Positions 4,513-44,507 of a stretch of DNA of 64,000 nucleotides are shown piece after piece (the stretch's first letter is position 1; the number at the start of each line of letters is the position of its first letter). The stretch is from an uncultured archaeon (GTDB lineage Archaea > Iainarchaeota > Iainarchaeia > Iainarchaeales > 1-14-0-10-31-34), in the NCBI GenBank assembly GCA_964608675.1, contig CAZSOZ010000001.1, forward strand, positions 221,272 through 285,271, in the 5' to 3' direction. A program made the translations under genes and the position numbers. The notes beneath the pieces were generated by a model. That model saw only the letters and a program-made list of their open reading frames with translations. It made no database searches and had not been told where the DNA came from.

Positions 4513-5229
4513 AGGGGGAAATTTACTGATCTTTCAAAAGTTAAATATAAGGGAGAAAGGGATATTGTGACTGAAGTTGATTTTGAAGCAGAAAAAATCA
4601 TTAAAGAAACAATTCTCAAAAGTTTTCCTTCTCATGAAATTCTTGCAGAGGAAACTCCAAGAGGTTATGAATTAGCTGACAATCTTTGGGTTGTGGATCC
4701 TTTGGACGGCACAGTTAATTTTGCTCACAATTACCCTAATTTTTGTGTTTCTATTGCTTTTAAACAGCAGGAGCAGACTCTTGTTGGGGTAATTTTTAAT
4801 CCGGTTTTGAATGAATTGTTTACTGCTGTTAAAGGAAAAGGCGCTTTTTTGAATGAAAAAAAAATTTTTGTTTCAAAAAACGCTGATTTAATTCGCATTC
4901 TGCTTAACACAGGTTTTTCTTATAATCGCGGAGAAAAAATGGAGTTTACTTTGAATGCAGTAAGAAGAATGCTTTATAAAATAAAAGACATTCGAAGAAG
5001 CGGTTCTGCAGCATTAGATTTAGCTTGTGTTGCCTGCGGAAGGACTGATGCTTATCTTGAATATCATTTAAAGCCGTGGGATTTATGTGCAGGAGCTTTA
5101 TTGGTTGAAGAAGCAGGAGGAAAAGTTTCTGATCCGGCGGGCTCTCAATTAAAGTCCCTTCCAATTGACTGCTTTGCTTCAAACAGCTTAATTCATGAAA
5201 AGCTTTTAAAAATAATAAACGAAAAATAA
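4450..5229 (+). CDS. suhB: Inositol monophosphatase / fructose-1,6-bisphosphatase family protein.
   Basis: Motifs WVVDPLDGTVNF, EEAGG and a conserved start MNYLDTAVLAAKKAGKII. The ORF track begins at 4432. Confidence 0.8.
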   Translation: MNYLDTAVLAAKKAGKIISSHRGKFTDLSKVKYKGERDIVTEVDFEAEKIIKETILKSFPSHEILAEETPRGYELADNLWVVDPLDGTVNFAHNYPNFCVSIAFKQQEQTLVGVIFNPVLNELFTAVKGKGAFLNEKKIFVSKNADLIRILLNTGFSYNRGEKMEFTLNAVRRMLYKIKDIRRSGSAALDLACVACGRTDAYLEYHLKPWDLCAGALLVEEAGGKVSDPAGSQLKSLPIDCFASNSLIHEKLLKIINEK

Positions 5230-5239
5230 TTATGTATAA

Positions 5240-5848
5240 TTAGAGTTTTATTTCTTCGAATGAGTCCATTGATACGTTTTCTCTTACTCTGTTTTCTTTT
5301 ATTTTTGTGTCTGATTCAATTACTTTGTCTGAAAATTGAGCAAATGCTTTCAATAGTTTTGGATCTAATTCTTGTTTTAAGTAAACTAGTATTCCTCCTG
5401 TACTGTTTTCTTTTAGTTTTCCTGTTGTATGGTGCACGAACTTCAAAACTGATTTTTCATTGTTATAAATCAGTAAAGTGTTGATTGAATCCAGTATTAA
5501 ATAATCTATTTTTGTTTTTTCCATTAATTTCAGTATCGCTAAACTGATTTGAGTCAGTGAATTTGGGTTGTCTATGTATTGTGTTTTTTCGTCACTCCAG
5601 CTTATTTTTCCTTTTGAAATGCTTTTGCTTATGCAGTCAATAAAATAAATGTTTTTTTGATTGATTTTTTTTTCTTTTATTTCTTTTTCCAGTGTTTTTT
5701 TTGTTTTGTTCACTGAAACAAAACATATTGATTTCTTTTTTAATGAAATTCCTTTCAGGATATTCATTATTCTTTCCTTATAGTTTTCATCTGGAACAAC
5801 CAGAATAATGTTTTGAATTTTTTCCAGTTCTTTAACTATTTTGTTCAT
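5240..5848 (-). CDS. KaiC/RecA-superfamily-like protein lacking a Walker A motif; a paralog of 30065-30628 and 30625-31542.
   Basis: It has a Walker-B-like YLILDSINTLLIYNNEKSVLKFVHHTTGKLKENSTGGILVY but no GxxGxGK[ST]. It is collinear with the two ORFs at 30.0-31.5 kb. Confidence 0.4.
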   Translation of the reverse strand: MNKIVKELEKIQNIILVVPDENYKERIMNILKGISLKKKSICFVSVNKTKKTLEKEIKEKKINQKNIYFIDCISKSISKGKISWSDEKTQYIDNPNSLTQISLAILKLMEKTKIDYLILDSINTLLIYNNEKSVLKFVHHTTGKLKENSTGGILVYLKQELDPKLLKAFAQFSDKVIESDTKIKENRVRENVSMDSFEEIKL

Positions 5849-5945: not shown

Positions 5946-6170
5946 ATGCCTAGAAGAAAAAAGCCTGTTGAAGGCAAAATAATAAATAAAAGAGAGGATA
6001 ATGTCTGGAGAGAATGGTACAGCAAACTTACTCCTGCAGATCACGATAAAATGCTTGCTAAATTAGGTTTAGATGAAGAAGACAGAGAAGAATTTTTTGA
6101 GGAATCCAATATAGGGAAACCCCAAACCAAGCCAAAAACAAAAAGCAAAAAAGGAAAGAAAAAAAAGTAA
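5946..6170 (+). CDS. Small basic protein (MPRRKKP...), unknown function.
   Basis: ORF with a Lys-rich C-terminal tail. Confidence 0.3.
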   Translation: MPRRKKPVEGKIINKREDNVWREWYSKLTPADHDKMLAKLGLDEEDREEFFEESNIGKPQTKPKTKSKKGKKKK

Positions 6171-25365: not shown

Positions 25366-27210
25366 TCAGTAAAATTCGGTTTTAATTTTCTTGTTTGTTG
25401 TTTTAGCTAGAATTTTGCCTTTCTTCTTTTCAACAATTAATTCAAATAAAGTGTTTCCTATTCTGATTTTTCTTTTAATGAATTTAATGCTTTCAGGAAG
25501 TTTTGGTTGTAAAAAAATTTTTTTTTCAAATGCATTTAATTTTATTCCAAGCATGAATTCATCTATTGCTTTTACTGCAAGTGCGTGGCCCCATAACTGC
25601 ATTCCACATCCTTTTAGTTCTCCTTTTGAATTCCAACATTCTCCTATTCCTCCAACACAGTCTTGATTTAAGTCTTCTGAAAATTTCATTAAATATTCTA
25701 ATGCTTTTTCTTTTCTTTCTGCTTTGAATTCACTGCACGCCATCCATCCATTACATAAACTCCAGCTTAATCCTGTGTGATAGCCTTCGTTAAATTTTTT
25801 TTCTTTTCTGCTTAAAGTCAGAATTCCTTTTTTTGAGTTGAATTCTTCTGATTCAAATAATTCAATTTCTTTTTTTGTTGCAGGTTTCTGCATTAAGTAA
25901 ACTAATGGATTGCAGGTTTTTATGAATTCATTTTTTTCATTTAATAAATCTCTGTAAACTGAATTTTTTTCAAAGTTTTTTATTATTTTTCTGTTTAATT
26001 CAACTGCTTTTTTTTCTGTTTCGTGTACTTCTTTTTCTTTTTCCTTTAATACAAGCAGGTTTCTGATTGAATGCAGGGCTTTCAGATAGAGTGCCTGTAT
26101 TTCTATTCCTGCTCCTTTTCTTTTAATTGAATCCATCCATGTTTCGTTTTCTTTATGAAAAATTAATCCTTGTTTTTCTTTTGTTTTAATGAAATCCATT
26201 ACTTTTTTGTATTTGATTTTTTTAAGTATTTTTTTGTTTCCTGAAGCAAAAACATAACTGCTTAATCCAATTAAAAACAAAAGTGATGCATCAATTGAAT
26301 TAAAGAAAACTTTTTTTCCTTCAATGTAATTAGGAATTTTTCCGTTTTTGTTTTTTTTCCAGAAATACAATAAAATTTTTTCTGCTTTTTCAAATTCTCC
26401 TAAAGACAGCAGTGCATTCAGACTCCATAAATTGTCTCTCCCCCAGTACTGCAGAAACCAAGGGTAGCCGGCAAAAAAATTTTTGTTGTTTTTCAGCAAA
26501 GTAATTCCTTTTGCTGAATCAGCAAACAGTCTTTTAATTTCATTGTTATTGCATTCAATTAATTTTTCTGTTTTTTTGTTTTCTTTTTCTTTTTTTTGTA
26601 TTTCTTTTTTTATGTCTTTTTCAGTTAACTTTTTTTCTTTTTCTGGAATCACTGCAAAAATTAATTGTTTTCCTTTAAGCAGGATTTTTCCAGGAACAAA
26701 ATATTTTTGTTTTTCGTTTGACGGAAAATGAGTTTCTTCTTTTTTTTCTTCAATGAAATTCATTTTTCCTTTAATTAAAAAAAAGTTTAGTTTTCCTAAG
26801 TCATTTGAAATTTTTATTTTGTTTTTCTTTTTGTTTGTTTTTATTTGATATTTTCTTTGAGTTAAATTTTCTTCTCTTTTCCTTATGTTTACTGCTAATT
26901 TAAGTTCTGTTTCTTTTTCTTTCAAAAAATTTATTTTTACATACAAGCCTGTCTTGTTTTTTGGAATAAATAAGGTTTCGGTTGAATTATCGTTATACGA
27001 GTGAACTGCTTTAATGTAATTGTATTCGGTTTTTTTGCATTTGTTTTCTTTCATTCCTTTAATTGAATAATATTCCAAGTATTTGTTTGAATTTTTCCAT
27101 AATCCTGTCCATTTTGTTTTGAAGCCGTTATCACAGTATCTTGAAAAAAAGCCTTTGTTTCCTGATAGAACATAATATTTTTGTTCTTTGTTTTCTGTAA
27201 TTGAATGCAT
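25366..27210 (-). CDS. Glycogen debranching enzyme (amylo-alpha-1,6-glucosidase, GDE_C type).
   Basis: FFAGYPWFLQYWGRDNLWSLNALLSLGEFEKAEKIL matches the GDE_C signature (GYPWF..WGRD); 614 aa. Confidence 0.7.
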   Translation of the reverse strand: MHSITENKEQKYYVLSGNKGFFSRYCDNGFKTKWTGLWKNSNKYLEYYSIKGMKENKCKKTEYNYIKAVHSYNDNSTETLFIPKNKTGLYVKINFLKEKETELKLAVNIRKREENLTQRKYQIKTNKKKNKIKISNDLGKLNFFLIKGKMNFIEEKKEETHFPSNEKQKYFVPGKILLKGKQLIFAVIPEKEKKLTEKDIKKEIQKKEKENKKTEKLIECNNNEIKRLFADSAKGITLLKNNKNFFAGYPWFLQYWGRDNLWSLNALLSLGEFEKAEKILLYFWKKNKNGKIPNYIEGKKVFFNSIDASLLFLIGLSSYVFASGNKKILKKIKYKKVMDFIKTKEKQGLIFHKENETWMDSIKRKGAGIEIQALYLKALHSIRNLLVLKEKEKEVHETEKKAVELNRKIIKNFEKNSVYRDLLNEKNEFIKTCNPLVYLMQKPATKKEIELFESEEFNSKKGILTLSRKEKKFNEGYHTGLSWSLCNGWMACSEFKAERKEKALEYLMKFSEDLNQDCVGGIGECWNSKGELKGCGMQLWGHALAVKAIDEFMLGIKLNAFEKKIFLQPKLPESIKFIKRKIRIGNTLFELIVEKKKGKILAKTTNKKIKTEFY

Positions 27211-27266: not shown

Positions 27267-28685
27267 TTATTTTGAGTTTAATTGTTCTGCAATTTTTTTG
27301 TTTAATTTTTCTTTAAATTCTTTTATTTGAGCTGAATTTATTCTGCATCCTGCAGCTATTTTGTGTCCTCCGCCTTCTGCTTCTTTTCCTAATTCAAGGC
27401 AGGTTTCTTTTAGGATTTTTCCTAAATTTAATCCTTTTCTTATTAGTTCGTCTGTTGCTCTTGCGCTTACTTTAATTAATTTGTCTGATTGTTTTGCAAA
27501 AGCAATTATTGGTTTGTTTTGGCTTATCATTTCTGAACCGTAAAGCATTCCTGCAATAATTCCTACTATTTCTTCTTTAATGTTTTCTCCTGAATCAAAG
27601 AAATAAAATTCTTTTTCTTCTTTAATTCCTTGTTTTTGCACCCATTCTATGCCTCCTCTTAATTGTCTTCTGTGTTCTAAAAGAAGATCCATTGCATTTT
27701 GATAAGCATTAATTCTGTCTCCCATGCAGACTATTAATCCTATTTCAGGCATTCCGTGCCTTCCGCAGGCATTTAAAAGTGTGGCAAATTCTTTTGCATC
27801 TCTTAAGGGGCTTTCTGGGTTTTCTTTCAGCAGAGTGTATGTTTCTCCTATAATGTTTTTTGCCCTGTTTTCTGTGAAGCCTTTTTCAATTAAATGCATT
27901 ATTAAATATGAAGTTAATTTCTTTTTTTCTTCAAAGCTTAAATCAGAGTATGTTTTCCATTTTTCTTTTTCTTTTAATTGAATTCCTTTTTCTGAAATGA
28001 ATTCAGAACTGGCTTTTTCGTTTGCAGCCAAACCAGGAAAAACAGGACTGGTGGAATAAGAAATAAACTGGGTTAAAGGCCTTGAAATTTTTCCGTAGAC
28101 TCTTAAATCGTTTTCTTTTTTTATTAATCCTGTTTCTTCTGCATCTTTTAAAATTTCTTGATTTAACCCTTCAAGTTTTCCTTTGTAATCCTGCATGTCT
28201 CCTACTGCCCCTACTACTCCTAAAACACTTAAGTCTTTGTTTTTTTCTGAAATTTCTTTTGCAACTAAGTATGCCATTCCTGCTCCTGAAATTTCTTTTC
28301 CTCCGTCAAAACCAAACAAAAATGGATTTGAATGAAATTTGTATTCTGTTTTTTCGGGCAGATGGTGGTCTATCACAAAAAAATTTTTTTTAAGTTTTTC
28401 TTCAAGAAGATTTATTTGTCCTGAACCAAAATCAACAAAAACCCAGTTTTTTCCTTTATCTTTTATTTTTTGTATTGTTTCTGAATACAACTGTTTTACT
28501 GTAATGTTTTCAAATTTTTTGTTTTCTCTTTCTAGTGTTTTTGCCATTATTGCTCCTGCACATAATCCGTCTGCATCATGATGATTTATAATAACAAATT
28601 CGTTTCTTTTGAGGATTTCTTCTGCAATCTCTTTGTTTCTTTTTTTTAGTTCCTGAAAATTTCCCATAAAAAATTTCTTTTCCAT
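27267..28685 (-). CDS. DHH/DHHA1 phosphoesterase, archaeal RecJ/GAN (Cdc45-like) type.
   Basis: NHHDADGLCAGAIM (DHH motifs I-II), VIDHH, and C-terminal GGGHKIAAGCRI (DHHA1). About 470 aa, like archaeal GAN. Confidence 0.7.
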   Translation of the reverse strand: MEKKFFMGNFQELKKRNKEIAEEILKRNEFVIINHHDADGLCAGAIMAKTLERENKKFENITVKQLYSETIQKIKDKGKNWVFVDFGSGQINLLEEKLKKNFFVIDHHLPEKTEYKFHSNPFLFGFDGGKEISGAGMAYLVAKEISEKNKDLSVLGVVGAVGDMQDYKGKLEGLNQEILKDAEETGLIKKENDLRVYGKISRPLTQFISYSTSPVFPGLAANEKASSEFISEKGIQLKEKEKWKTYSDLSFEEKKKLTSYLIMHLIEKGFTENRAKNIIGETYTLLKENPESPLRDAKEFATLLNACGRHGMPEIGLIVCMGDRINAYQNAMDLLLEHRRQLRGGIEWVQKQGIKEEKEFYFFDSGENIKEEIVGIIAGMLYGSEMISQNKPIIAFAKQSDKLIKVSARATDELIRKGLNLGKILKETCLELGKEAEGGGHKIAAGCRINSAQIKEFKEKLNKKIAEQLNSK

Positions 28686-30064: not shown

Positions 30065-30628
30065 ATGGCTTTTTCTTTAAGCAGTCTTGAAATAAAAGAA
30101 AACAAAAGTGTTTTGTTTTCAGGCAGGTCTTTTCAGGCAAAAAAATTAATTGAATTAATCTTAAAAGAGCAAAAAAATCAGAAAAATATTCTTGTTGTTT
30201 TGGATCCGGCAAACTATTCTTCTTTAATGAACGATTTTTTTGTTGTTTCAAAAAAAGCTTTTGGAAGAAATTCAGTTGTAGTGGATGATTATTGTCTTTC
30301 TGAAATTTCTTCTGCAGTACATTCAGTTGAAAGAAAATCTGATTCAAAAGGAATTCTTTTGTTTGATTCTCTTTCTTCTTTGCTTTCATTTAATCCTTCA
30401 AACGCAGTTTATTCTTTTCTTTTTTTTGAATCAAGAAAAGCAAAAGAATTAAATTATTCTTTAATTGTGTTTATTGATGAAAGGCTTCATGATACTGCTG
30501 TTTTAATGAACATAAAAAAAATAATGGATTATAATTTCTTTTTTGAATTCAAGGAAAAAAAATTGTTTATAGAAAAAACTGCTTTTCCTTTTAATTCAAT
30601 CAAAAAAAATTATTCTTTTAATGTTTAG
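30065..30628 (+). CDS. KaiC/RecA-like fold protein without a Walker A motif (paralog family).
   Basis: ILLFDSLSSLLSFNPSNAVYSFLFFESRKAKELNYSLIVFIDE is collinear with the Walker B region of 5240-5848 and 30625-31542. Confidence 0.4.
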   Translation: MAFSLSSLEIKENKSVLFSGRSFQAKKLIELILKEQKNQKNILVVLDPANYSSLMNDFFVVSKKAFGRNSVVVDDYCLSEISSAVHSVERKSDSKGILLFDSLSSLLSFNPSNAVYSFLFFESRKAKELNYSLIVFIDERLHDTAVLMNIKKIMDYNFFFEFKEKKLFIEKTAFPFNSIKKNYSFNV

Positions 30629-31542
30629 AGTATTTGAAGGACTCTGTCGCAGAACTGGCTTAATGAATTAACTACTCCTTTATGTTCTTCTGATTTGACC
30701 ATTAAAAGAACTCCTTTCATTTTCCAGTCCCTTAGTTTTCCTATAACTAAATGAATAAATCTTTCAACTGAAGCAATATCGTTGTAAATTAACAAAGTGC
30801 TAATTGAATCAAAAACCAAAAATTTAGGTTTTTCTTTTTGTTTAACATATACTTCATCTATTGCAACACTTAATGCAGTTAAATCTCGAGGAGATTCAAT
30901 GAATTCAACGTTAGGATTAAAAGAAGCTTCTTTTCCTGTTCCTTTGCTTATTGCGTCAACAAAAATTAGTTTTTCTATATCTATTTTTTCTCTTTTAAGT
31001 GTTTCTTTCATGAAGTCAAAAGACCTATTCAAAGTTATGTATAATCCTTTTCCTTGTGTGTGGTTTATTAACAGTCTGATTAATTCGTAATTTATTTTTG
31101 AATAATTTGTTGGTTCCACTAAAAGCAGTGCAGTGAATTGTTCTTTTGGCAGTTCTTCTAAATATCTTAAAATTGTTAAGTCTATTCCTCTTCTCGGGCT
31201 TATTAATTCCTGCAGTGCTTCTTCTGGACGCATTTCTTTTTTTAAATCAGTTTTCATTTCAATGTTTTTTTTTCTTTTGTCTTTTTTTGTTACATAGGTT
31301 CTTATCTGTTTTTCAGGTTTTGTCAGAAGTTTTTCCAGTTCTTTAATTGAATCACCGTCTTTTCCGTTTTTTTTTGCTTCTTTGATTATTTCTTTTTTTC
31401 TTTCTTTTCCCAGGCTCTTTATTTGTTCTGTTAATTTCTGAAATCCTTCTTTTTTTTTTGCCTTCTTTTTTTTATTTTCTTTTTTCTTTTTTCCTTTTTT
31501 CTTGCTTTTCTTTTTTTTCTTTTTCATTTCAGATGTCCTCAA
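30625..31542 (-). CDS. KaiC/RecA-like protein without Walker A, carrying a poly-Lys N-terminal extension.
   Basis: N-terminus MKKKKKKSKKKGKKKKENKKKKAKKK, and a C-terminal FLVFDSISTLLIYNDIASVERFIHLVIGKLRDWKMKGVLLMV (Walker-B-like). It overlaps the downstream KaiC-like ATPase gene by 14 nt. Confidence 0.45.
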   Translation of the reverse strand: MRTSEMKKKKKKSKKKGKKKKENKKKKAKKKEGFQKLTEQIKSLGKERKKEIIKEAKKNGKDGDSIKELEKLLTKPEKQIRTYVTKKDKRKKNIEMKTDLKKEMRPEEALQELISPRRGIDLTILRYLEELPKEQFTALLLVEPTNYSKINYELIRLLINHTQGKGLYITLNRSFDFMKETLKREKIDIEKLIFVDAISKGTGKEASFNPNVEFIESPRDLTALSVAIDEVYVKQKEKPKFLVFDSISTLLIYNDIASVERFIHLVIGKLRDWKMKGVLLMVKSEEHKGVVNSLSQFCDRVLQIL

Positions 31543-32227
31543 ACAATTCCTGTTTTGATAAAACCTTTAATCCTGTCGGCCCGATTGTAACGGGATGAAG
31601 TTTTTCTGATATTTTTGTTCCTCTCATTTTTAGTATTCCTAAACTTCTTACAAACCTGTTTTCTATTTTTGTGTGATACAATAAAATTACTCCGTCTGCA
31701 ACATATTCTTCTAATCCAAACAAGCTTCTTGTTTTATCTAAATTTATTTCGTTTGTTATTACTGTTGTGCAGTCAATTTGTTTTAGCATTTTTCCAAGAC
31801 TCATTATTCTTTTTCTTGCATCCAGTTCTCTGTCAAAGTAAAGCCTGAAAATTACTCCTGGATCAATTACCAGTCTTTTTGCATTAATGGTTTGAATTGA
31901 ATCTTCAATCAAATTTTTGAGTTTGTCAAAATCATATAATTCCACTACTTCTATTATCAGCATTTTTTTCTGAATTAATTCTTCTAATTGGTATCCGAAT
32001 TCTTTTCCATTTCTTATTATTTCGTCGTATGTTTCTTCTAATGAAATGTATATTGCTGGTTCATTGAATTCTATTGCTCCTTTATATAAGTATTCCAGAC
32101 AAAAGCAGGTTTTTCCTGAACCTGGGTCTCCTGCTAATACAACAAGGTTTCCTCTTGGAATTCCTCCATCCATTAATTCATCTAAGCCTGGAACCCCTGT
32201 TTGCGTTCTGTCAGCTAATCTAGGCAT
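31529..32227 (-). CDS. KaiC-like RecA-superfamily ATPase, resembling FlaH/ArlH.
   Basis: GVPGLDELMDGGIPRGNLVVLAGDPGSGKTCFCLEY (Walker A) and RLVIDPG (Walker B); 232 aa, the single-domain size of FlaH. Confidence 0.65.
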   Translation of the reverse strand: MPRLADRTQTGVPGLDELMDGGIPRGNLVVLAGDPGSGKTCFCLEYLYKGAIEFNEPAIYISLEETYDEIIRNGKEFGYQLEELIQKKMLIIEVVELYDFDKLKNLIEDSIQTINAKRLVIDPGVIFRLYFDRELDARKRIMSLGKMLKQIDCTTVITNEINLDKTRSLFGLEEYVADGVILLYHTKIENRFVRSLGILKMRGTKISEKLHPVTIGPTGLKVLSKQELFEDI

Positions 32228-32377
32228 AAATTTTTCACTTCTAAATAAATAAGTTAAAGGTATTTAAAATAACTTGTTTAATTTTATTTTTTTCATAATT
32301 GTTTATTTTCTTAAACCGCAAAACATTTAAATACAACAATCTTTCTTATACTATTCAATAATTGTTTTTTTAACTTA

Positions 32378-32384
32378 AAGGAGG
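32378..32384 (+). promoter_or_regulatory. Shine-Dalgarno site (AAGGAGG) 7 nt upstream of the major pilin ATG.
   Basis: aaaggaggaagataaATG, read directly. Confidence 0.5.
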
Positions 32385-32391
32385 AAGATAA

Positions 32392-32835
32392 ATGTTTAAG
32401 AATAACAAAGGACAATCCGCACTTGAATATTTGATGACATATGGATGGGCTTTGGTTGTAATTGTAATTGTAATTGCAGCCTTGTTTGCTTTCGGTGTCT
32501 TCAATACTCCAAAGAACTGTACACAAACCGGCGGCCAGATGTTGATAAAAAACTATGATTTCAATAGCGGTTTAATACAATTGCAAATTACAAACGGAAC
32601 ACCTAATACAGTAGAAATCACTGGTTTTGATTCTACAACAGGCATTGATAGTTGGTCTGGAGGAGATCCTTGGGTTACACACACCAGTTCTGACTTAGCA
32701 AAAAATGACACTAACACATTCTTTTTAGTGCCGTCATCCGCTTTGTCTGGAAGCATTACTGAAGAAATCACAATGACTTATACATCAGGCGGATTAACTA
32801 AAACAGAAAAAACAACTTGTAGTGGACCAGTTTAA
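32392..32835 (+). CDS. Major type IV pilin / Flp-like pilin with a class III signal peptide.
   Basis: MFKNNKGQSALEYLMTYGWALVVIVIVIAALFA has a short basic N-region, G|QSALEY (Glu at +5 after the Gly, EY as in Flp/archaeal pilins) and a hydrophobic helix. The mature part is Thr/Ser/Gly-rich with N-x-T/S sequons; 147 aa. Confidence 0.7.
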   Translation: MFKNNKGQSALEYLMTYGWALVVIVIVIAALFAFGVFNTPKNCTQTGGQMLIKNYDFNSGLIQLQITNGTPNTVEITGFDSTTGIDSWSGGDPWVTHTSSDLAKNDTNTFFLVPSSALSGSITEEITMTYTSGGLTKTEKTTCSGPV

Positions 32836-33182: not shown

Positions 33183-34172
33183 TTATATTAATGACTTGAA
33201 TGTGTTTTCTAAAAACAGTGAAACAATAAAATAAATTGCATATGATGCAATAAGCATTACTGGAATGTATTTTATTCCTCCTTTTTCGCTTCTTGAATTA
33301 ATTATTCCTATTGTAAGAGACCCAAAAACAGAGATTACTGCTAAAGTCACTAAAGAAAAAACAAAAATGAATTCAGGCTGTATTGCCATTCCTCCTGCAC
33401 CTATTCCTAATCCTCCCTGCGAGGAAGCTAATGCAACTGATTCTTCTGATATTGTTCCAATGCTTCCCATTTGCTTTGACATTATTTTCACGATGAATGA
33501 ACTGATTCCAAACATTAATGGCGCTCCAATCATTGAAGCAAAGAAAATAAGTATTACATACATTGAAACATTTCCTTTTACTTCTTCTTGTAATGCGTTT
33601 TGTTCCCTTAAATCGTCTGATAATTGAAGAAGCAGGTTTGCCATTTCTCCTCCGGATTTCATTCCTTCTGTTATTAGCCAGATTGTTTTTTGAAATGTTT
33701 TTGATTTTATGCTGTTTGTCATTTCTTTTAATGCTGTTTCAGTTCTTTCTCCTGCCATCATTTTTTTGCTTGCTTTTTTGAATTCTATTTCTAATGGGCC
33801 AAATTCAGGTCTTGCAGAAATAAGCAAAGCTTTTTCTGTAGTTATTCCTGATTTCATGTTTGATGCAATTAATTGCAGGGCATCAGGCAGAATTTTTTCT
33901 ACGAATTTTCCTTTGGATTCGCCTGCCTGATTTAATAAATAGTAAATGCCCCCTGCAATCAATGCAAATCCTGCTGTAAATCCAATGAAAAAATTCAGCT
34001 GAAAAAAATAAGTTAATGCAAATCCTGATGCTATTGCTGAAGCAAAACTAAATACTGCCAGAAATCCTGTAAAATTTTTTGTTTCAATATCTATTCCTGA
34101 ATACATTAATTCTTTTGTAAATGTATCTAATACTGTTCTTGGAATCAGTTTTCCTATTTTTTCGTACATCAT
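33183..34172 (-). CDS. Type II secretion system F-domain (T2SSF) membrane protein, TadC/FlaJ-like.
   Basis: Multi-TM protein with a T2SSF-like cytoplasmic region (ASNMKSGITTEKALLISA...); 329 aa. Confidence 0.65.
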   Translation of the reverse strand: MMYEKIGKLIPRTVLDTFTKELMYSGIDIETKNFTGFLAVFSFASAIASGFALTYFFQLNFFIGFTAGFALIAGGIYYLLNQAGESKGKFVEKILPDALQLIASNMKSGITTEKALLISARPEFGPLEIEFKKASKKMMAGERTETALKEMTNSIKSKTFQKTIWLITEGMKSGGEMANLLLQLSDDLREQNALQEEVKGNVSMYVILIFFASMIGAPLMFGISSFIVKIMSKQMGSIGTISEESVALASSQGGLGIGAGGMAIQPEFIFVFSLVTLAVISVFGSLTIGIINSRSEKGGIKYIPVMLIASYAIYFIVSLFLENTFKSLI

Positions 34173-34179
34173 TTTTTTT

Positions 34180-35076
34180 TCATCCCATTAAATTTGGTGT
34201 TTTTGATTTTAATATTCCTAAATACATGAATTCTCCTACTGCAATAAAAATCAACAAAATCCAGAATAACATTTCTCCTAACTGCATTTGAGGAAACGAA
34301 CTTAACACAATAAGGAATGTGACTCCTAATGAAGGAATTATTACTCCTAACATCATGTACATTAATGAAAGAATTTTCATTGAATTTCCGTATTTTGTGA
34401 TTTGGAGTTTTTCTTCTCTTATCATTGTTGAAACCAGTTCTTCCATTACTGAGCTTACATCTGATCCTGCTTTCATTCCGTTTATTATCTGCCAAATGCT
34501 TCTCCTGAAAAAAAGTGAAGGATTGTATCTTGCAATTTTTTCTAATGCAATTTCTTCTATTGTTCCTGTTTCAATTTCTTTTACGGCTTTTCTGAATTCA
34601 TTTGATAATGCGCCGTAATCTCCTTCTGCTATTATATTCAGGGAATCAAACAGGGAAACCCCTGATTTTATTTCCACTGCCATTGTTCTTAAAGCAAAAA
34701 TTAAATTCCTTTCAACTTCTCTTATTTTTTGTTTTCCTTTCATTTTTGGATATAATGCAGTTTGCATCATCACAAATCCGCTGAAAAGAGCGCCTCCTAT
34801 TAAGGCTGCAAGCAAATAACTGTCCGGAAGCAATCGTATTCCAATAAGCAAAGCCAAAATGAATCCTATTACAAAATAGATTGCCCCCATTGTTAGAATT
34901 ATTGCTGAATATTCTTTTTCGTTGTATTCCAGTTCTGCCTGATATAATTCAAGTTTAAGGTAAGGAAAGAATTTTGAAATCTTTAATCCTATTCCATAAA
35001 ATTTTTTTGAAATAGTTTTAATTAGAGAAAGGGGAAGAAAATTAAATGGAATCATTTTGTTTTTTTTTGTTTTCAT
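34180..35076 (-). CDS. T2SSF-domain membrane protein, TadB/FlaJ-like.
   Basis: TM segments and the T2SSF region ALRTMAVEIKSGVSLFDSLNIIAEGDYGALSNEF...; 298 aa. Confidence 0.65.
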   Translation of the reverse strand: MKTKKNKMIPFNFLPLSLIKTISKKFYGIGLKISKFFPYLKLELYQAELEYNEKEYSAIILTMGAIYFVIGFILALLIGIRLLPDSYLLAALIGGALFSGFVMMQTALYPKMKGKQKIREVERNLIFALRTMAVEIKSGVSLFDSLNIIAEGDYGALSNEFRKAVKEIETGTIEEIALEKIARYNPSLFFRRSIWQIINGMKAGSDVSSVMEELVSTMIREEKLQITKYGNSMKILSLMYMMLGVIIPSLGVTFLIVLSSFPQMQLGEMLFWILLIFIAVGEFMYLGILKSKTPNLMG

Positions 35077-36591: not shown

Positions 36592-38358
<1,767 letters not shown>

Positions 38359-38402
38359 TTTATATTCCCATTTATATGTTGTTGTTTATCCTTTTTATTT
38401 TT

Positions 38403-39503
38403 TCATGTCGCTTTAGTTATTGCACTTGGATTAGATTCGTTTCCATACCAGTCCACTGCAGTTAAATAAAAGTAATTTGTCTGCCATAATTCCAGCTCTT
38501 TTCCTGTTTCTTCTTTTGAGGAAACTGCGTTCAGAACATATGCAGTGAATGCCTGGCTGTCTTCTTTGCTTCTGTAAATCCTGTATTCTTTTAAATCTTC
38601 TTCTGGGTTTGCATTCCATGCAATAAGTATTTTGCCGTCTGTTTTTCTTGCAGTTATTCCTGTTGGAGCAGAGGGAGCAATCGAATCATTTTTTACTTTT
38701 ATTCCTGTGATTTCAAAAACTTTTCCTGTGTTTTTTATTTCAATTATATATTCTCCTTCTTTTTCAGGAGCAGTTAATTCTGCTGAAAAAATTTTTGAAC
38801 AGGAACTGCATAAATTTTTTGTTATTTTTTGGGTTTTTTGTGTTGAATTATTTTTAATCCATTCAACAATAAAATTGAATTCTTTTGCAGGAATTTTTTC
38901 TGCATCTACAATTAAACTAATTTTTTGGTTTGGTTTAACAAATTTTTTTTCTATTGAAATTCTTTTTATTTCAAATGTTTCTTGATGAATGCATTTTCCG
39001 TTAATGCATTCTCCTTCGTTGCATCCGCATTTTTCGCAGTTTTTTTCCAGTTTTCCGTTATTGCAGTAATTTGGCTTTTGTTTTGAACATTCTCCAAACA
39101 AAGTTCCGTCAATGCATTTTTTTTCTGTTTCAATTACAGTTATTTTCTTTTTTTTGTTTATTTGGTTTCCGTTATCCAGAATCATTTTCATTTCAATCAT
39201 GTAAACTCCTGTTTTCTGAAAGATTTCTGTGAATTCAACTGAGCATTCTGTTTTACTGCATTCTTTTTCTTTTGTTTTTTCTGGAGACAAGTAAACTATT
39301 TTTTTTATGAGGAAAGAACTTTCTGCATTTACTTCAAATAATGCTTTTTCTCCTTTCTCAAAGCTTTCTTTTGATTTAATTTCAATTTTTGATTCAGTGG
39401 TTATTCCTTTAACATTAATTATTCCTGCAGAACTCAAAGTAAAAAAAACCCCTAAAAAAACTGTTATTGAAAGAATTATTGAAAAAATATTTTTTATTTC
39501 CAT
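38403..39503 (-). CDS. Secreted or membrane-anchored protein with a Cys-rich module and a C-terminal fibronectin-III-like domain.
   Basis: N-terminal hydrophobic signal; CIDGTLFGECSKQKPNYCNNGKLEKNCEKCGCNEGECINGKCIHQ; the C-terminal PSAPTGITARKTDGKILIAWNANPEEDLKEYRIYRS...YFYLTAVDWYGNESNPS is FN3-like. Confidence 0.45.
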   Translation of the reverse strand: MEIKNIFSIILSITVFLGVFFTLSSAGIINVKGITTESKIEIKSKESFEKGEKALFEVNAESSFLIKKIVYLSPEKTKEKECSKTECSVEFTEIFQKTGVYMIEMKMILDNGNQINKKKKITVIETEKKCIDGTLFGECSKQKPNYCNNGKLEKNCEKCGCNEGECINGKCIHQETFEIKRISIEKKFVKPNQKISLIVDAEKIPAKEFNFIVEWIKNNSTQKTQKITKNLCSSCSKIFSAELTAPEKEGEYIIEIKNTGKVFEITGIKVKNDSIAPSAPTGITARKTDGKILIAWNANPEEDLKEYRIYRSKEDSQAFTAYVLNAVSSKEETGKELELWQTNYFYLTAVDWYGNESNPSAITKAT

Positions 39504-39510
39504 TTTTTTT

Positions 39511-40473
39511 TCACTTGTTTGTTTTTTCTATATTAAATCTGCTGTCAGTCAAAGTTATGTTTAAGTCATTTAATTTTATTTCTTCTATTTCTGAAGTAAA
39601 CAAAAACTGGACTTTTGCTTGAATTTGTGTTCCTGAATGCCTTATTTCAACATTGTTTTCATTGAAAAAAATTTTTATTTCTTCTGAATTGCATCCTGCA
39701 CCAACACACAAAAAAGTTATTTCGTGGTCTGATGTTGAATCAAAATGCTTGCTTGTTTTTCTGGTATCTGAATTTAAATCGCATTCTGAACAGTTTTCAT
39801 CCAGCAAATTTACTTCAATAAAAGGACTTAACTGCATGGGATTATAGCTTTCCTGATAACAGTTTTGATCTCCTCCGTAATCACATGACAAAAAATTGTA
39901 GTCTTCTGAAGACGAAACAGAAATATTTATGTCAATCTTTCTGATTAAATCTATATCAAAATTTTCTTCGCATTCATTTGAGCCATGAAAGTGCATTGAA
40001 TTGTAGTCTGTTAAAGTGTATTTTTGGCATTGTGGTTTTATAATTAAATTAATGTTTTCATCTATTCCCCCCCATAAACTGTTTTTTGGGGCTTCTACTT
40101 CAACTTCTATTAAATCATAAATTGCTGAATCACTGCTTTCAGCAAAAATTTCATATGCATTAATAAAATCAAAAAAGCTTTTGGTTTGAACTTCTTTTAA
40201 GGGAAGTTTTTGAGTAAAACTGACAGTTCTTTCTTCAATTGAATAAGTAAACGGAACAAGCCTTTCAAAATAAGTTTTTGTTGTTCCTGTCCTGTAAAAA
40301 TCTTTTATAAAACCTATGTTTGAATACTTGTATTTTACTTGGTCAACGGCGTTTGAAGCAAATGACTTTTTTTCTGCTTCCAGATACTGGCTGTTTATTT
40401 TGAATGCAAAACCTAACAGCATTAAAGACAAAACCAATCCCATTAAAACAAAAAATAATCCTTTGTTTTTCAT
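39511..40473 (-). CDS. Secreted protein with a possible class-III-like (pilin-like) N-terminus.
   Basis: MKNKG|LFFVLMGLVLSLMLLGFAF: short basic N-region, Gly, then a 20-aa hydrophobic stretch. It overlaps the upstream gene by 4 nt. Confidence 0.35.
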   Translation of the reverse strand: MKNKGLFFVLMGLVLSLMLLGFAFKINSQYLEAEKKSFASNAVDQVKYKYSNIGFIKDFYRTGTTKTYFERLVPFTYSIEERTVSFTQKLPLKEVQTKSFFDFINAYEIFAESSDSAIYDLIEVEVEAPKNSLWGGIDENINLIIKPQCQKYTLTDYNSMHFHGSNECEENFDIDLIRKIDINISVSSSEDYNFLSCDYGGDQNCYQESYNPMQLSPFIEVNLLDENCSECDLNSDTRKTSKHFDSTSDHEITFLCVGAGCNSEEIKIFFNENNVEIRHSGTQIQAKVQFLFTSEIEEIKLNDLNITLTDSRFNIEKTNK

Positions 40474-43196
40474 TTAATCCAGCCCCTGTATTCTATTACA
40501 TAAAATTCTGTTTTTGGAGAAGCATAACAATGAATGGAATCAAGATTATTTGTAGGGCATTCACTTAAATTTCCGTTTGGATTGACTTCCACGCAGATTA
40601 TTCCTTGTGTAGCAATATATTCATCTAAATAAAGTATTGTTGAAAAACTGCAGTCTGAGTCATTTCCTCCGCATAATTCAGGCACAAGATAATGATTTCC
40701 AAGAAGAATTCTTCCTGCTCCTGTACTGCAAACTGAATCATTTCCTAAATAAAAATTCAAATCAGTTTCTCCTGTGTTCAAATCTCCAATATTTGATACA
40801 TTTACATCAATAAAAATGTCTGTTTCGCTTAATATTTCTCCACTGATTATTTCAACTGCAATATCTCTTTTTTTGAATGGAATTGGAACAGTGAATGCAT
40901 TCCAGTCAATTATTTGTGTTGTTCCGTTTTCATCCACATAAGACAAATAACTTCCTTGTCCGGGAAAAACAATTGAATCTGTTTCGCATCCTAAATTTGA
41001 ATCACATGCAATATTAATTGTATAACTTCCGTGCCAAGGATTTTCAGGAGAAATGTTTCCTGCATCAAAAACAAGGTTTCCGTCAATAATTGTAGCGTTT
41101 CCGTCATCAATTATCGTAATATTTTGAGGCATTATAATTGTTACGTTGGAGTCTGTTGCTTGAGCCTGAATTTCATCTGCAATCAAATTATAGATGTCCA
41201 TTAATGCATTTGCGTCTTCTGCAAAGTAATAATTGGCATCAGTTGCATTAGCAATATTCTGTAATTCTGTTTCATCCACGTCTCCTCCAAATCCAATAGT
41301 ATAAATTTTTATTCCTAAATCTGCTGCGTCTTCTGCTGCCTGCAACGAATCCCCTGAATTTGACTGTCCGTCTGACAGCAAGACTTGGAATTTTAATGCA
41401 TATTCCGCGGTTCTTTCTGAAATTAATTCTTCTGTTCCTTCTCTTATTCCTTGTTCGATGTTTGTTCCTCCTCCGGGCAACAGGGAATTTACATCTGTCT
41501 GTAATGCAAGTTTGTTTGAATCATCTAATTTTTTTAATTGTGAATCCAGAAAAGAAGAAGTATGAAAGCTGGCTACTCCTATTTGGTCTGATGCTTTCCA
41601 TTCATTGAAATCAATAAATGTAGCAGCAGAAGCCTGAACTGCATCCATTTTTGTTCCAGAACTTAAATCCAAAGTAATTAAACCCATTGAATCAGCCGCA
41701 ATAAATGCATACCCGTTTTCGACTCTTACATCATTATATTCGTAAGGAGTCCTGTAAATTCTGTTCAATAAAGGATTATCTACATCGCTTACATCAATGG
41801 AATACAAGCCTCCTGATTCATCTGCAATATATGCAGTGTTTCCGACTACATCAACTCCTCTTGCGTTGTCTGCAGTATTATAGTTCCCTCTTGCACTAAT
41901 ATTGCTTGGATCACTTACATCAAAAACGTCCAGTCCTCTTGAACCATTTGCAACAAACACATAGTTTCCTGAAACTTTTACTCTGTAAGCTTGTCCGCCT
42001 AAATCCATTGAATCCTCAAAAGTTAAATTGTTTGGGTCACTGGCATTTAATACAACAAATCCGTCATTGTAATTTCCTATATATAAATAAGTTCCATCTG
42101 AATCAATTCCAAACGCAGTTCCAGAAGTATCATAATTGTCCTGATGATTTATATTTCCTGGATCGCTTGCATCATATGAATCAACTCCTCTTGAACCGTT
42201 TGCAGCATACAATTGATTCCCTATTTTTACAACCCCATAAGAATAGTTTCCTGATAAATCAACTCTGTCTGTTTCAAACATGTCTGTAGGATCGCTTATA
42301 TCTATTGATCTTATTCCTGAAGTGTAATCTGCCACATATGCATAATTTCCTTCAATAAAAACATCAAAAGCAATATATGTGTCTTGCCTGTCTCCATATA
42401 ATATGTCTAATGGATTGCTTACATTAAAACTGTATATTCCATAATAATAATCTGCAAGGAAAGCATAATTTCCTGAAACATCAACTGCCTGAGAATTATA
42501 TGCGTCGTATTCTCCTCCCCAGCTCATTGAACCGCTTTTGTCTATAACAAGCATTATGTCTACAGGCCTTCGGTATCCAGGGGGAAAAGCAGCAGTCAAA
42601 TTAACTATAATATTTTGATCGCATTCAAGTTCTGTGTCAGGAACCGTATTTACATCGAAAACAAAATTAAGGTCTTCTCCCATGAAATCAAAAAATATTT
42701 TTCCTGTGTCAAAAACAAATTTTTGTTCTGATTGCATTAAACCCAGAATATTTGTATCACATTCTCCTGGAGGCTGTTTTTTTACAATTAATTTTTTTCC
42801 GTAGAAAACAGTTTTATTTTCAGGGACTTCTGATCCAAAAGAGAATTCATTAAAATCTGTTCCAAAACAATCATTAAAAGTCTGGTTGTTTCTGCATTTA
42901 ATTGAATTCAAATCAAATTGTTTTACGCTTACATTTAAGTCAAGGTAATCAGGAAAAAATCCTTCAAGTTTATTGTAAATATTTTCAGCTGAAGCAGATG
43001 TATTTGCATCCATTTGACTTATAAGAAACCCTGTTTGTTCCATTGCATTGAATGCGTCGTTTAATTCCTGTCCAATGTTTCTTTCAGCTTTTTCTTCAGA
43101 AAAAAATAATCCTGCAGACAAAATTATTCCTGAAACTAAAACTAATGCAAGAATAGCATCAAAACTAAATGTAAACCCTTTATTCCCATAATTCAT
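40470..43196 (-). CDS. Giant pilin-like adhesin: class III signal peptide, then a vWA domain interrupted by an LVIVD-repeat beta-propeller, then a C-terminal Cys-containing domain.
   Basis: Likely start MNYGNKG|FTFSFDAILALVLVSGIILSAGLFF; the ORF track extends to 43241. MIDAS DIMLVIDKSGSMSW is followed by about 300 aa of LVIVD-like repeats (YAFLADYYYGIYSFNVSNPLD, YAYVADYTSGIRSIDISDPTD, YVFVANGSRGLDVFDVSDPSN, TAYIADESGGLYSIDVSDVDNP, YAFIAADSMGLITLDLSSG). The vWA then resumes (GGGTNIEQGI, LLSDGQSN, IYTIGFGGD). Confidence 0.7.
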   Translation of the reverse strand: MNYGNKGFTFSFDAILALVLVSGIILSAGLFFSEEKAERNIGQELNDAFNAMEQTGFLISQMDANTSASAENIYNKLEGFFPDYLDLNVSVKQFDLNSIKCRNNQTFNDCFGTDFNEFSFGSEVPENKTVFYGKKLIVKKQPPGECDTNILGLMQSEQKFVFDTGKIFFDFMGEDLNFVFDVNTVPDTELECDQNIIVNLTAAFPPGYRRPVDIMLVIDKSGSMSWGGEYDAYNSQAVDVSGNYAFLADYYYGIYSFNVSNPLDILYGDRQDTYIAFDVFIEGNYAYVADYTSGIRSIDISDPTDMFETDRVDLSGNYSYGVVKIGNQLYAANGSRGVDSYDASDPGNINHQDNYDTSGTAFGIDSDGTYLYIGNYNDGFVVLNASDPNNLTFEDSMDLGGQAYRVKVSGNYVFVANGSRGLDVFDVSDPSNISARGNYNTADNARGVDVVGNTAYIADESGGLYSIDVSDVDNPLLNRIYRTPYEYNDVRVENGYAFIAADSMGLITLDLSSGTKMDAVQASAATFIDFNEWKASDQIGVASFHTSSFLDSQLKKLDDSNKLALQTDVNSLLPGGGTNIEQGIREGTEELISERTAEYALKFQVLLSDGQSNSGDSLQAAEDAADLGIKIYTIGFGGDVDETELQNIANATDANYYFAEDANALMDIYNLIADEIQAQATDSNVTIIMPQNITIIDDGNATIIDGNLVFDAGNISPENPWHGSYTINIACDSNLGCETDSIVFPGQGSYLSYVDENGTTQIIDWNAFTVPIPFKKRDIAVEIISGEILSETDIFIDVNVSNIGDLNTGETDLNFYLGNDSVCSTGAGRILLGNHYLVPELCGGNDSDCSFSTILYLDEYIATQGIICVEVNPNGNLSECPTNNLDSIHCYASPKTEFYVIEYRGWIK

Positions 43197-43734
43197 AAAC
43201 TTGTAATTCAATTTGAGCTTCACTTCCTCTATAATTAACAATTCTTTTGGTTGAAATCAAATATTCTGTCTGGCTTGCAGGACTTAATCCTGCACTAATT
43301 ATTATTACTCCTTGAGTTAAAACAAAATAATAATCATATCCTTCCAATCCAAGGAGTTCCCTGCTTTTATTGTAGTCAAGATTTGAAAAAGCTGTCAGTT
43401 TGTCTTCGCTTATCTGATTTCTTTCCATTAATCCAATTCTTTCAATATGGCTTTCACTTAAATCCTCCCAGTTTTCAGGATAGCCTTTTGTTTCAGTTAA
43501 TTCTTTTAAAACAAAAAAAGAAGAATGATTGATTTCATTTAATTCCATGTTTCTAGTAAAATCTTTTGTGTTTTTGTTTACTGCTGAAAGAACAGAAGTA
43601 AAAATTAAAACAAAAATAAAAAACCCCATAACTAAATCAATCATGCTTGACTGTCCTCGTTTGCTTTTATGCAGGAATAAGAAAGTGCTTTTAGTCAAGC
43701 ACAAGGATTTCTTAGATTTTTTCAATTTCAACAA
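43180..43734 (-). CDS. Pilin-like protein (minor pilin / pseudopilin) with a class III signal peptide.
   Basis: KRGQSSMIDLVMGFFIFVLIFTSVLSA: G|QSS followed by a hydrophobic helix; 184 aa. Confidence 0.5.
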   Translation of the reverse strand: MLKLKKSKKSLCLTKSTFLFLHKSKRGQSSMIDLVMGFFIFVLIFTSVLSAVNKNTKDFTRNMELNEINHSSFFVLKELTETKGYPENWEDLSESHIERIGLMERNQISEDKLTAFSNLDYNKSRELLGLEGYDYYFVLTQGVIIISAGLSPASQTEYLISTKRIVNYRGSEAQIELQVYELWE

Positions 43735-44068
43735 CTCCGTTTAAATCTTTTATTCTTACATTTCCTTTTGTAATAAAAATTTCTTGGGCTATTCCATAAT
43801 AACTGCAGGAAATTCCTTCAACATCAATCCACCCTTCACCTACATTAAAGTCTTTTTCTGCATAAAATTCAACGGTTGTTTTTTTTCCTGAAGCATAAAC
43901 TGAACTGATTATATCTGAGATTTTTCTGCATTCAGCTTTTGATTCAAGATAATCTGCCATTATTTCAATTTCATTATTTTTTTCAAAACTATATGCTGCA
44001 ATTACTGCAAAAGATAAAAGCAGTACAACTGCTCCAATAATTATTTCCATTGAAACCTGGCCTTTCAT
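43712..44068 (-). CDS. Pilin-like protein with a class III signal peptide.
   Basis: MKGQVSMEIIIGAVVLLLSFAVIAA has the QxSxE motif immediately after Gly; 118 aa. Confidence 0.6.
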   Translation of the reverse strand: MKGQVSMEIIIGAVVLLLSFAVIAAYSFEKNNEIEIMADYLESKAECRKISDIISSVYASGKKTTVEFYAEKDFNVGEGWIDVEGISCSYYGIAQEIFITKGNVRIKDLNGVVEIEKI

Positions 44069-44078
44069 TTAAATCATT

Positions 44079-44507
44079 TCAGCTAATTTCAGTGAAAGTG
44101 ACATTTGAATCAGTGGATTCAACTGCAATAAAATGAAATCCTTCTTCTGTTGAAAAACTTGTTGGTTCAAGTTCTGCTTTGCTTATATCATAAACTTCAT
44201 AAGTGCTTACTAAAGAAGTCATTTCAATTATTACTTGGCTGCCAATTGTATAAAAATTTGTTACTCCTGAAGGAAGTTCTGCTTCAACTACAATAATGCT
44301 TCCGTTTCTTGTGCTTACTTCATCTGCAGCATTAACTAATTCCCTTAAAGAATAATAAGTTGTATTAAATCTCTCGTTTTCATTCACAGTAATTATTGCA
44401 AAAACAAACATTATTCCTACAATAAGCATAACAATTGCAGTAAGACTTACGTATTCAACAGAAATCTGCCCTTTATTCAAAAAACCACTTTCCTTATTTA
44501 GAAACAA
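44079..44507 (-). CDS. Pilin-like protein with a class III signal peptide; first gene of the operon, with an apparent TTG start.
   Basis: LNKGQISVEYVSLTAIVMLIVGIMFVFA has QxSxEY; 142 aa. Confidence 0.6.
   Translation of the reverse strand: MFLNKESGFLNKGQISVEYVSLTAIVMLIVGIMFVFAIITVNENERFNTTYYSLRELVNAADEVSTRNGSIIVVEAELPSGVTNFYTIGSQVIIEMTSLVSTYEVYDISKAELEPTSFSTEEGFHFIAVESTDSNVTFTEIS

Follow-up and report, generated by a model that had tools for sequence, protein, structure and literature searches.

What does an intact KaiC ATPase do beside P-loop-less relatives of its own family and a type IV pilus locus? The question is raised by a 64,000-nucleotide stretch of DNA from an uncultured archaeon assigned to the Iainarchaeota (GenBank assembly GCA_964608675.1, contig CAZSOZ010000001.1, positions 221,272 to 285,271), which is referred to below as the window. 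The window has a G+C content of ∼30%, and the closest relatives of its proteins come from metagenome-assembled DPANN archaea labeled Diapherotrites/Iainarchaeum and Micrarchaeota. An intact KaiC gene (here called C) adjoins two genes for P-loop-less relatives (B and A), and a third such gene (D) lies elsewhere in the window; all four open reading frames named by the initial annotation are present at the positions given in the table below. Because C, B, and a coiled-coil protein that we call cc435 are usually found in or beside a pilus locus, next to the major pilin gene, an accessory or regulatory pilus module is the most economical reading. We put the probability that these DPANN genes encode such a pilus-associated KaiC module at about 0.6.

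Judged by its sequence, C is an intact single-domain, CI-like KaiC ATPase, for which ATPase activity is predicted. It matches the Pfam KaiC family (PF06745) with an E value of 9.3e-59 (199 bits; cutoff, 26.6) and solved KaiC structures, in a PDB profile search, with E values of 1e-48 to 1e-54 (best, 1.2e-54). Scores against the KaiC CI domain reached 118 to 123 bits, compared with 47 to 63 bits against CII. Aligned with CI, C has a Walker A motif (GDPGSGKT, correctly read in the initial annotation as the intact P-loop of a 232-residue single-domain KaiC), the catalytic Glu pair (SLEE), Walker B (RLVID), and the Lys/Arg finger (LKMRG). At what we take to be the CII phosphosite positions, C has Glu-Tyr, as does CI. 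The best 120 homologs listed are 64 to 91% identical to C and come from DPANN bins labeled Diapherotrites, Micrarchaeota, and 'ainarchaeum'.

Several other identities for C were considered and rejected. C is not a canonical circadian KaiC, as it consists of one domain, scores 125 bits against the circ_KaiC equivalog model (cutoff, 546), and scores higher on CI than on CII; a Pfam scan retrieved no KaiB-like gene among the genes adjoining C. Orthology with ArlH/FlaH was rejected on the basis of 47 bits against the NCBIfam ArlH equivalog (cutoff, 215) and an E value of 1.6e-6 against the FlaH structure 4wia, compared with 1e-54 for KaiC. Thus, the resemblance to ArlH/FlaH proposed initially holds for size and fails for orthology, and the FlaH-FlaI comparison stands as an analogy only. 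Membership in an arl operon was likewise dismissed, given that the neighboring genes encode two T2SSF proteins, a T2SSE ATPase, pilins, and a VWA adhesin. C is also no RadB or Rad51 (38.8 bits against the RadB cutoff of 172; Pfam Rad51 E value, 0.0057), and it reaches no NCBIfam archaeal KaiC subfamily cutoff. A role in defense was rejected, as the PADLOC defense models gave no match except that of C to mad8, at 17 bits.

B and D are clear paralogs of each other by sequence (BLASTP E value, 1e-23; 32% identity over 139 amino acids) and, by threshold, ordinary members of the DUF7504 and DUF7090 families. B scored 36.9 bits against DUF7504, and D scored 32.2 bits against DUF7090 and 28.9 bits against DUF7504 (cutoff, 27 in each case). 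Both also gave subthreshold Pfam matches to KaiC and DUF835, and BLASTP found no significant match between C and B. A is a divergent, shortened relative of these inactivated KaiC proteins (iKaiCs), recognized by profile and fold comparison only. Its best Pfam scores (16 to 17 bits) lie below every gathering threshold, and its BLASTP matches to B and D (E values of 0.05 and 0.067, respectively) are not significant. Aligned by hhalign, the A and B families match with an E value of 1.3e-6 (probability, 90.6%; 98 columns). Against the 260 open reading frames of at least 60 amino acids in the window, a B-family hidden Markov model (HMM) matched A at 5.7e-8, and an A-family HMM matched D at 8e-6 and B at 1.2e-4. 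When 1.84 billion representatives were searched exhaustively with a profile, 18 relatives of A were retrieved in all, the distant ones being KaiC, DUF7504, DUF7090, DUF835, and PAXNEB proteins.

The link to KaiC itself was also evident. A profile of 31 B-family proteins matched solved KaiC with an E value of 1.5e-4, placing TLNK on KaiC TFEE and DSISTL on KaiC IDSITA, and a combined profile of A, B, and D reached 4e-6. Significant profile similarity to the KaiC/RecA fold, the absence of which had been named beforehand as grounds for abandoning the idea, was thus found for all three P-loop-less proteins. The predicted structures of A and B are confident models with a KaiC/RecA fold, and their top fold matches are KaiC-type proteins (PH0284, PH0250, and KaiC), with Elp4/5/6 and XRCC2 appearing elsewhere among the fold matches.

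A common core is shared by B (FLVFDSISTLLIYN), D (YLILDSINTLLIYN), and A (ILLFDSLSSLLSFN), as the initial annotation described, and its claim that these three proteins lack a P-loop was borne out as well. Plain MAFFT alignments, whether of all four proteins or of A and B, misregistered the N termini and were replaced by an alignment bridged by intermediates and by an Undinarchaeota protein with a half-decayed P-loop (APPKAETH). In the bridged alignment, the Walker A motif of C (GDPGSGKT) corresponds to VEPTNYSK in B, VPDENYKE in D, and FSGRSFQAKK in A; Walker A is absent from all three, and the P-loop of A is degenerate. The Glu pair (SLEE in C) is replaced by TLNR in B, SVNK in D, and VLDP in A. 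At Walker B, LVIDP of C is matched by LVFDS in B, LILDS in D, and LLFDS in A, the Asp being kept in A and B. B ends directly after the strand following SQFCD and thus lacks the C-terminal hairpin that bears the Lys/Arg finger in C. The motifs DSxSTLLxYN and SQFCD are invariant across distant lineages.

The N terminus of B had been described as 30 residues of polylysine. A lysine tract is indeed present, with 20 Lys among the first 26 residues of the 300-residue protein, and is followed by a basic low-complexity linker extending to about residue 95. Variable-length basic N termini containing Arg and Lys occur in the B orthologs P0003, P0008, P0010, P0013, and P0014; the lysine tract itself varies in length and is confined to closer orthologs. 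The tract suggests that B may bind an anionic surface. The start codon of B is most likely ATG 31527; a database entry that is 300 amino acids long and identical to the query over the C-terminal 206 amino acids searched agrees with this start.

Two further kinds of iKaiC were seen among the related loci (described below). In Undinarchaeota (L065:9938-12084), a 325-residue iKaiC retains the KaiC N-terminal motif GIPGLD and carries the half-decayed P-loop mentioned above; it is followed by a 390-residue protein in which a KaiC-like domain with a degenerate P-loop (SGPGIDSS) is fused to a small GTPase-like domain (GPEGSGKS). Proteins of 674 to 800 amino acids with an iKaiC (DUF7504) domain in mid-protein were found beside a second KaiC paralog at L018:5449-7470, L042:2171-4543, and L048:5046-7445. 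The regions flanking the embedded domain gave no Pfam match except a weak one to SHOCT.

Read from right to left, the gene order in this part of the window is pilin, C, B, A, cc435, and a DHH/DHH-CID gene, with an amylo-alpha-1,6-glucosidase-family gene beyond it on the left. The P-loop-less genes therefore all lie on one side of C, and the original picture of C flanked by paralogs on both sides was mistaken. A single base separates the stop codon of C (TGA, 31531-31529) from the ATG of B, so C and B are probably cotranslated. The cc435 gene is directly upstream of A and convergent with B; A begins 30 nucleotides past the cc435 stop codon on the same strand and converges with B such that the two stop codons overlap. 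C and B thus make up one unit and cc435 and A another, each read in that order, and the two units converge. An overlap of 4 nucleotides joins the end of the cc435 homolog to the A-like gene in L005. D is unlinked to C, B, and A and neighbors an inositol monophosphatase gene. A KaiC HMM matched no window open reading frame besides C, and hence no KaiC gene lies near D, for which no close ortholog was found among the fetched proteins or loci (best, 37 to 39% identity).

To place this arrangement in context, 66 loci, one genome per species, were collected by scanning for a B-family motif. They derive from Iainarchaeum/Diapherotrites, Micrarchaeota, Woesearchaeota, Aenigmatarchaeota, Undinarchaeota, and Altiarchaeales, along with some methanogen, Bathyarchaeota, and Nitrososphaerales bins. 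A KaiC homolog lies no more than 1.5 kb from the iKaiC in 49 of 62 informative loci, and in 34 of those 49 it is at least 54% identical to C. Where such an orthologous KaiC is accompanied by at least 8 kb of upstream flank, the pilus assembly ATPase PilB is present in 19 of 23 loci. The recurrence of KaiC, a dead paralog, and pilus genes in related genomes is thus confirmed, and the placement of the module beside a type IV pilus operon and its major pilin is kept across many DPANN genomes.

The most constant neighbor of the KaiC-iKaiC pair is cc435, which the initial annotation did not include. Traced with an iterated HMM, the family lies tail to tail with the iKaiC gene in 28 loci; among the 29 loci with an orthologous KaiC whose downstream sequence is long enough, 27 have it. 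Compared pairwise, cc435 and its homolog in L049, a locus of the second gene order described below, match with an E value of 1e-8. Beyond generic coiled-coil noise, the cc435 family has no relatives in Pfam, NCBIfam, or the PDB. The conserved core therefore consists of KaiC, a B-type iKaiC, and cc435, to which A is a clade-specific addition confined to the window and L001 to L005, while D is unlinked. The proposal of an active KaiC next to dead paralogs accordingly stands for B, a constant neighbor, and falls for A, which occurs in the closest relatives and belongs to the other transcription unit, and for the unlinked D.

Labeling of all open reading frames in the loci with HMMs revealed four gene orders. 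In the first (the window and L001 to L006, with L003 and L006 ending early at contig ends), the genes for the VWA protein, the 320-, 366-, and 588-residue proteins, PilB, and two TadC proteins run in one direction and are followed by a reversed pilin gene, forward KaiC and iKaiC genes, reversed A-type and cc435 genes, and a forward DHH gene. In the second (14 loci), the same pilus genes precede a reversed KaiC gene, a forward pilin gene, a forward iKaiC gene, and a reversed cc435 gene. An inversion of the KaiC-pilin segment separates these two orders, and pilin, KaiC, and iKaiC are adjacent in both. Overall, about 20 loci have a pilin homolog next to the KaiC and iKaiC genes or between them, 14 with a forward pilin gene between a reversed KaiC gene and a forward iKaiC gene and 6 with a reversed pilin gene ahead of forward KaiC and iKaiC genes. 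The third order has an extra KaiC/iKaiC pair, then forward KaiC and iKaiC genes, a reversed cc435 gene, and usually a forward DHH gene. In the fourth, seen in Aenigmatarchaeota, a reversed KaiC gene and a forward iKaiC gene lie about 6 kb from a pilus operon. The pilus gene order of the window recurs in L002, L006, L021, L035, L036, L043, L047, L049, L050, and L057. In the complete genome of archaeon GW2011_AR10, which has the third order, the trio and a second pilus operon (L016:1656-8927) are divergently oriented. The operon opens with the gene for a 397-residue KaiC paralog that has a long extension at its N terminus, followed by genes for five class III signal-peptide proteins and, at its end, for PilB and two TadC proteins.

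Purifying selection acts on C, B, A, cc435, and PilB. Ratios of nonsynonymous to synonymous substitution rates (dN/dS) against the four or five closest genomes, which are rough values because synonymous divergence is high, were 0.06 to 0.08 for C, 0.10 to 0.22 for B, 0.21 to 0.35 for A, 0.15 to 0.43 for cc435, and 0.06 to 0.12 for PilB. Together with the conservation across loci, these values indicate that the dead copies A and B are maintained genes and are not decaying. That they might be decaying duplicates without a function of their own would fit the loss of every catalytic motif, the restriction of A to one small clade, and its shortening; with intact open reading frames, conserved lengths, invariant motifs in distant lineages, confidently predicted folds, and dN/dS ratios of 0.10 to 0.35, this idea is already largely refuted and scarcely credible.

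Some observations weigh against a role specific to pili. C shows the conservation of a housekeeping protein, and PilB was not found in the remaining 4 of the 23 loci whose upstream flank reaches 8 kb or more. Many B-type genes from outside DPANN lack a neighboring KaiC gene. Sampling through one B-family motif, largely in related lineages, means that shared ancestry inflates the counts. In addition, the B and C families align poorly by hhalign (E value, 0.002; probability, 13%), as do the A and C families (E value, 0.11), although the alignment of the C family has low diversity, and for that reason hhalign results against it were not used as evidence. The weak match of B to C implies that B represents an old, separate KaiC lineage rather than a recent copy of C. 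A general KaiC signaling or housekeeping hub with other targets, whose adjacency to pilus genes is simply gene order inherited among related DPANN archaea, would agree with the level of identity of C across differing DPANN phylum labels, its low dN/dS, the four loci without PilB in the flank, and the relatedness of the sampled genomes. It would also agree with one layout that keeps the trio with the DHH/RecJ-like gene and not directly with PilB (L007, L008, L012, L018, L031, L042, and L048), and KaiC-like ATPases have been proposed as general hubs (cited in PMC5847659). We nevertheless regard such a hub as plausible but rather unlikely: in 14 loci the pilin gene separates KaiC from iKaiC, the inversion preserved adjacency, Aenigmatarchaeota pairs whose KaiC is only 35 to 42% identical (L028, L032, and L034) are still no more than about 6 kb from a pilus operon, and the seemingly nonadjacent layout of GW2011_AR10 is in fact divergent from another one.

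A recombination or repair complex of the Rad51-paralog type, in which C acts on DNA, the tail of B binds DNA, and the DHH gene takes part, was suggested by the fold matches and by the polybasic tail of B. The DHH/DHH-CID gene adjoins cc435 in the window and in 13 loci, which would suit such a role, but none of the 14 loci with the second order has it, while their pilin and pilus genes stay. As C is a KaiC protein well below the RadB cutoff and the top fold matches are themselves of the KaiC type, we consider a recombination complex very improbable. The DHH gene is split by tblastn gaps of ∼1.5 kb at L004:13531-15053 and L042:9950-11412, which may represent another intein in addition to that in PilB (see below).

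For a pilus-associated module, a mechanism can be outlined by combining the predicted properties of the proteins with known systems. C would form an ATP-dependent ring, as do KaiC, PH0284, and ArlH, and B would bind C as a noncatalytic partner. Because B, by its motifs, should neither bind ATP nor supply the finger that a neighboring active site would need, a stacked second ring or an adaptor is favored over a mixed ring. The candidate target is the PilB ATPase; by analogy with the action of ArlH on ArlI, the complex, possibly with cc435, may couple the nucleotide state of C to PilB activity or assembly. Alternatively, the complex may act on the expression of pilin, as has been suggested for CirA of Haloferax volcanii. 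Through its lysine-rich tail, B could hold the complex at an anionic surface, which might be a membrane or a nucleic acid. A would be a recent extra dead subunit expressed with cc435, and D would be a spare paralog. A bolder version, in which KaiC, dead KaiC, and cc435 constitute an unrecognized cytoplasmic subcomplex of the DPANN type IV pilus machine, with a CI-like ring and a P-loop-less ring from separate genes rebuilding a double-ring KaiC in trans and gating PilB in a manner analogous to ArlH with ArlX/ArlCDE, is speculative, and we hold it to be improbable.

The nearest precedents differ from this module in defined ways. An ArlH hexamer sits on ArlI, and its nucleotide or phosphorylation state controls the interaction (10.1101/2021.03.19.436134). 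Like C, ArlH is a single-domain KaiC-like protein of ∼230 amino acids encoded with a type IV filament ATPase. However, C is no ArlH ortholog, its sequence being much nearer to KaiC CI, and ArlH is not known to have a dead paralog dedicated to it. The pilus locus of the window, with its two TadC genes and VWA adhesin, is of the adhesion type and is not an archaellum. In Haloferax volcanii, the KaiC-like gene cirA lies between archaellin and motor genes on the opposite strand and represses motility (PMC10983859). This placement has the topology of the layout in which pilin lies between divergent KaiC and iKaiC genes, and cirA is genetically tied to pilins; the likeness is one of gene topology: cirA is part of an archaellum cluster, and neither an iKaiC nor a coiled-coil protein has been described as a partner of its product.

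More generally, KaiC family ATPases have been reported in strong association with archaeal type IV pilus loci (arCOG01171, arCOG01174, and arCOG01175), and in one case arCOG01174 is paired with the alpha-helical arCOG03758 (Makarova, Koonin, and Albers 2016; PMC4858521). These predicted KaiC regulators resemble C in lying in or beside pilus operons, once with an alpha-helical second component, whereas the partners described here are a P-loop-less KaiC paralog and a coiled-coil protein of 400 to 435 amino acids in a DPANN lineage. C itself falls below all NCBIfam archaeal KaiC subfamily cutoffs. DUF835 and MEDS have been labeled iKaiC, and such domains mostly occur in fusions with receiver, PAS, or membrane modules (PMC5847659). 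B and D share their fold and loss of ATPase motifs and pass the DUF7504/DUF7090 thresholds; in contrast, the window iKaiCs stand alone, in a fixed pair with an active KaiC, and A is below all Pfam thresholds. Two-domain KaiC (CI plus CII), Elp4/5/6, and Rad51 paralog complexes are RecA-fold rings mixing catalytic and noncatalytic modules, but here the modules are separate genes, and no KaiA or KaiB was seen next to them. KaiC-pilus linkage and inactivated KaiC domains are thus already described. What appears to be new, relative to the literature searched, is the fixed trio of KaiC, stand-alone dead KaiC, and coiled-coil family, the way in which the pilin gene is interleaved with that trio across DPANN, and the clade-specific minimal iKaiC A. 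No mention of DUF7504 or DUF7090 was found in that literature.

Features of the window, with coordinates, strand, and basis of assignment.
Feature	Positions	Strand	Basis
C: single-domain CI-like KaiC ATPase (predicted activity), 232 aa	31529-32227	-	Pfam, PDB profiles, motifs
B: inactivated KaiC (iKaiC, DUF7504), 300 aa from ATG 31527 or 305 aa from TTG 31542	30625-31527/31542	-	
B lysine-rich N-terminal tract	31450-31527	-	translation
A: minimal iKaiC, 187 aa	30065-30628	+	
D: third iKaiC paralog, 202 aa	5240-5848	-	BLASTP vs B, DUF7090/DUF7504
cc435: uncharacterized coiled-coil protein, 435 aa	28727-30034	+	
DHH/DHH-CID/DHHA1 protein (RecJ/GAN-like domain set)	27267-28685	-	Pfam
Amylo-alpha-1,6-glucosidase-family protein	25366-27210	-	
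AT-rich divergent intergenic region, C/pilin gene	32228-32391	.	sequence reading
Major pilin candidate, class III signal peptide (MFKNNKG/QSALEYLMTYGWALVVIVIVIAAL)	32392-32835	+	translation, weak Pilin_N match
Two TadC-like (T2SSF) membrane platform genes	33183-35076	-	Pfam T2SSF E=8.8e-15 and 2.1e-17
PilB/T2SSE-type pilus assembly ATPase, 500 aa	35089-36591	-	Pfam T2SSE E=3.7e-37
Rest of pilus locus	36592-44507	-	Pfam, translations
Charged 588-aa protein, Lys- and Glu-rich	36592-38358	-	
923-aa LVIVD/VWA protein	40470-43241	-	
74-aa open reading frame	5946-6170	+	

To the right of the pilin gene, the two T2SSF genes and the T2SSE gene are followed by the remainder of the pilus locus. This remainder encodes the charged 588-residue protein, two proteins of 366 and 320 amino acids that are secreted or membrane bound, the likely 923-residue adhesin, and three small pilin-like proteins; several of the small proteins in this part of the locus have class III signal peptides. 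The intergenic region between C and the pilin gene contains TTTAAATA-like elements, for which a promoter role is putative, and GGAGG stands 8 nucleotides ahead of the pilin ATG. Scans for tRNAs and Rfam families returned no features in the window.

The pilus genes yielded several side observations. In L004, the PilB homolog has an in-frame insertion of ∼490 amino acids (4276-5742) between ...ILSIED and TRELSL..., which ends in ...VCHN and contains LAGLIDADG-like motifs; these features identify it as an intein. Similar gaps interrupt the PilB matches of L001, L005, L029, and L043, and the window PilB has no insertion. The 588-residue protein, encoded directly upstream of PilB, is extremely rich in Lys and Glu and has no Pfam match. 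Its ∼60 C-terminal residues resemble, by eye, the C terminus of a Pro/Ala-rich, 272-residue L049 protein (4202-5020) that also precedes PilB and is otherwise unrelated. The 923-residue protein combines a pilin-like N terminus, LVIVD repeats, a VWA domain, and a CARDB-like region, is conserved in many loci, where it opens the cluster, and is likely a pilus-associated adhesin. Far from the pilus locus, the 74-residue open reading frame divergent from D has a lysine-rich C terminus (…KPKTKSKKGKKKK) and no family match.

In summary, the initial interpretation of an intact KaiC with a dead paralog by a pilus locus is supported. The DPANN archaea in culture are tiny symbionts dependent on direct contact with host cells, and pili are obvious candidates for making that contact; we know of nothing on how DPANN pili are controlled. 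Here, a compact and widely conserved gene set, in which an active KaiC is joined by a dead one and by a coiled-coil protein, is tied to pilin and pilus motor genes. As these are small soluble proteins amenable to expression and reconstitution, the set offers a concrete system for testing the older prediction that KaiC family ATPases regulate archaeal type IV filaments. DUF7504 and DUF7090, Pfam families of unknown function, gain a genomic context and a probable partner, and C and B provide a natural example, known from sequence, of a catalytic/noncatalytic RecA-fold pair. Should the trio prove to be a subcomplex of the pilus machine, it would point to energy- or contact-dependent control of pili in host-dependent archaea, whose pili are thought to be used for attachment.

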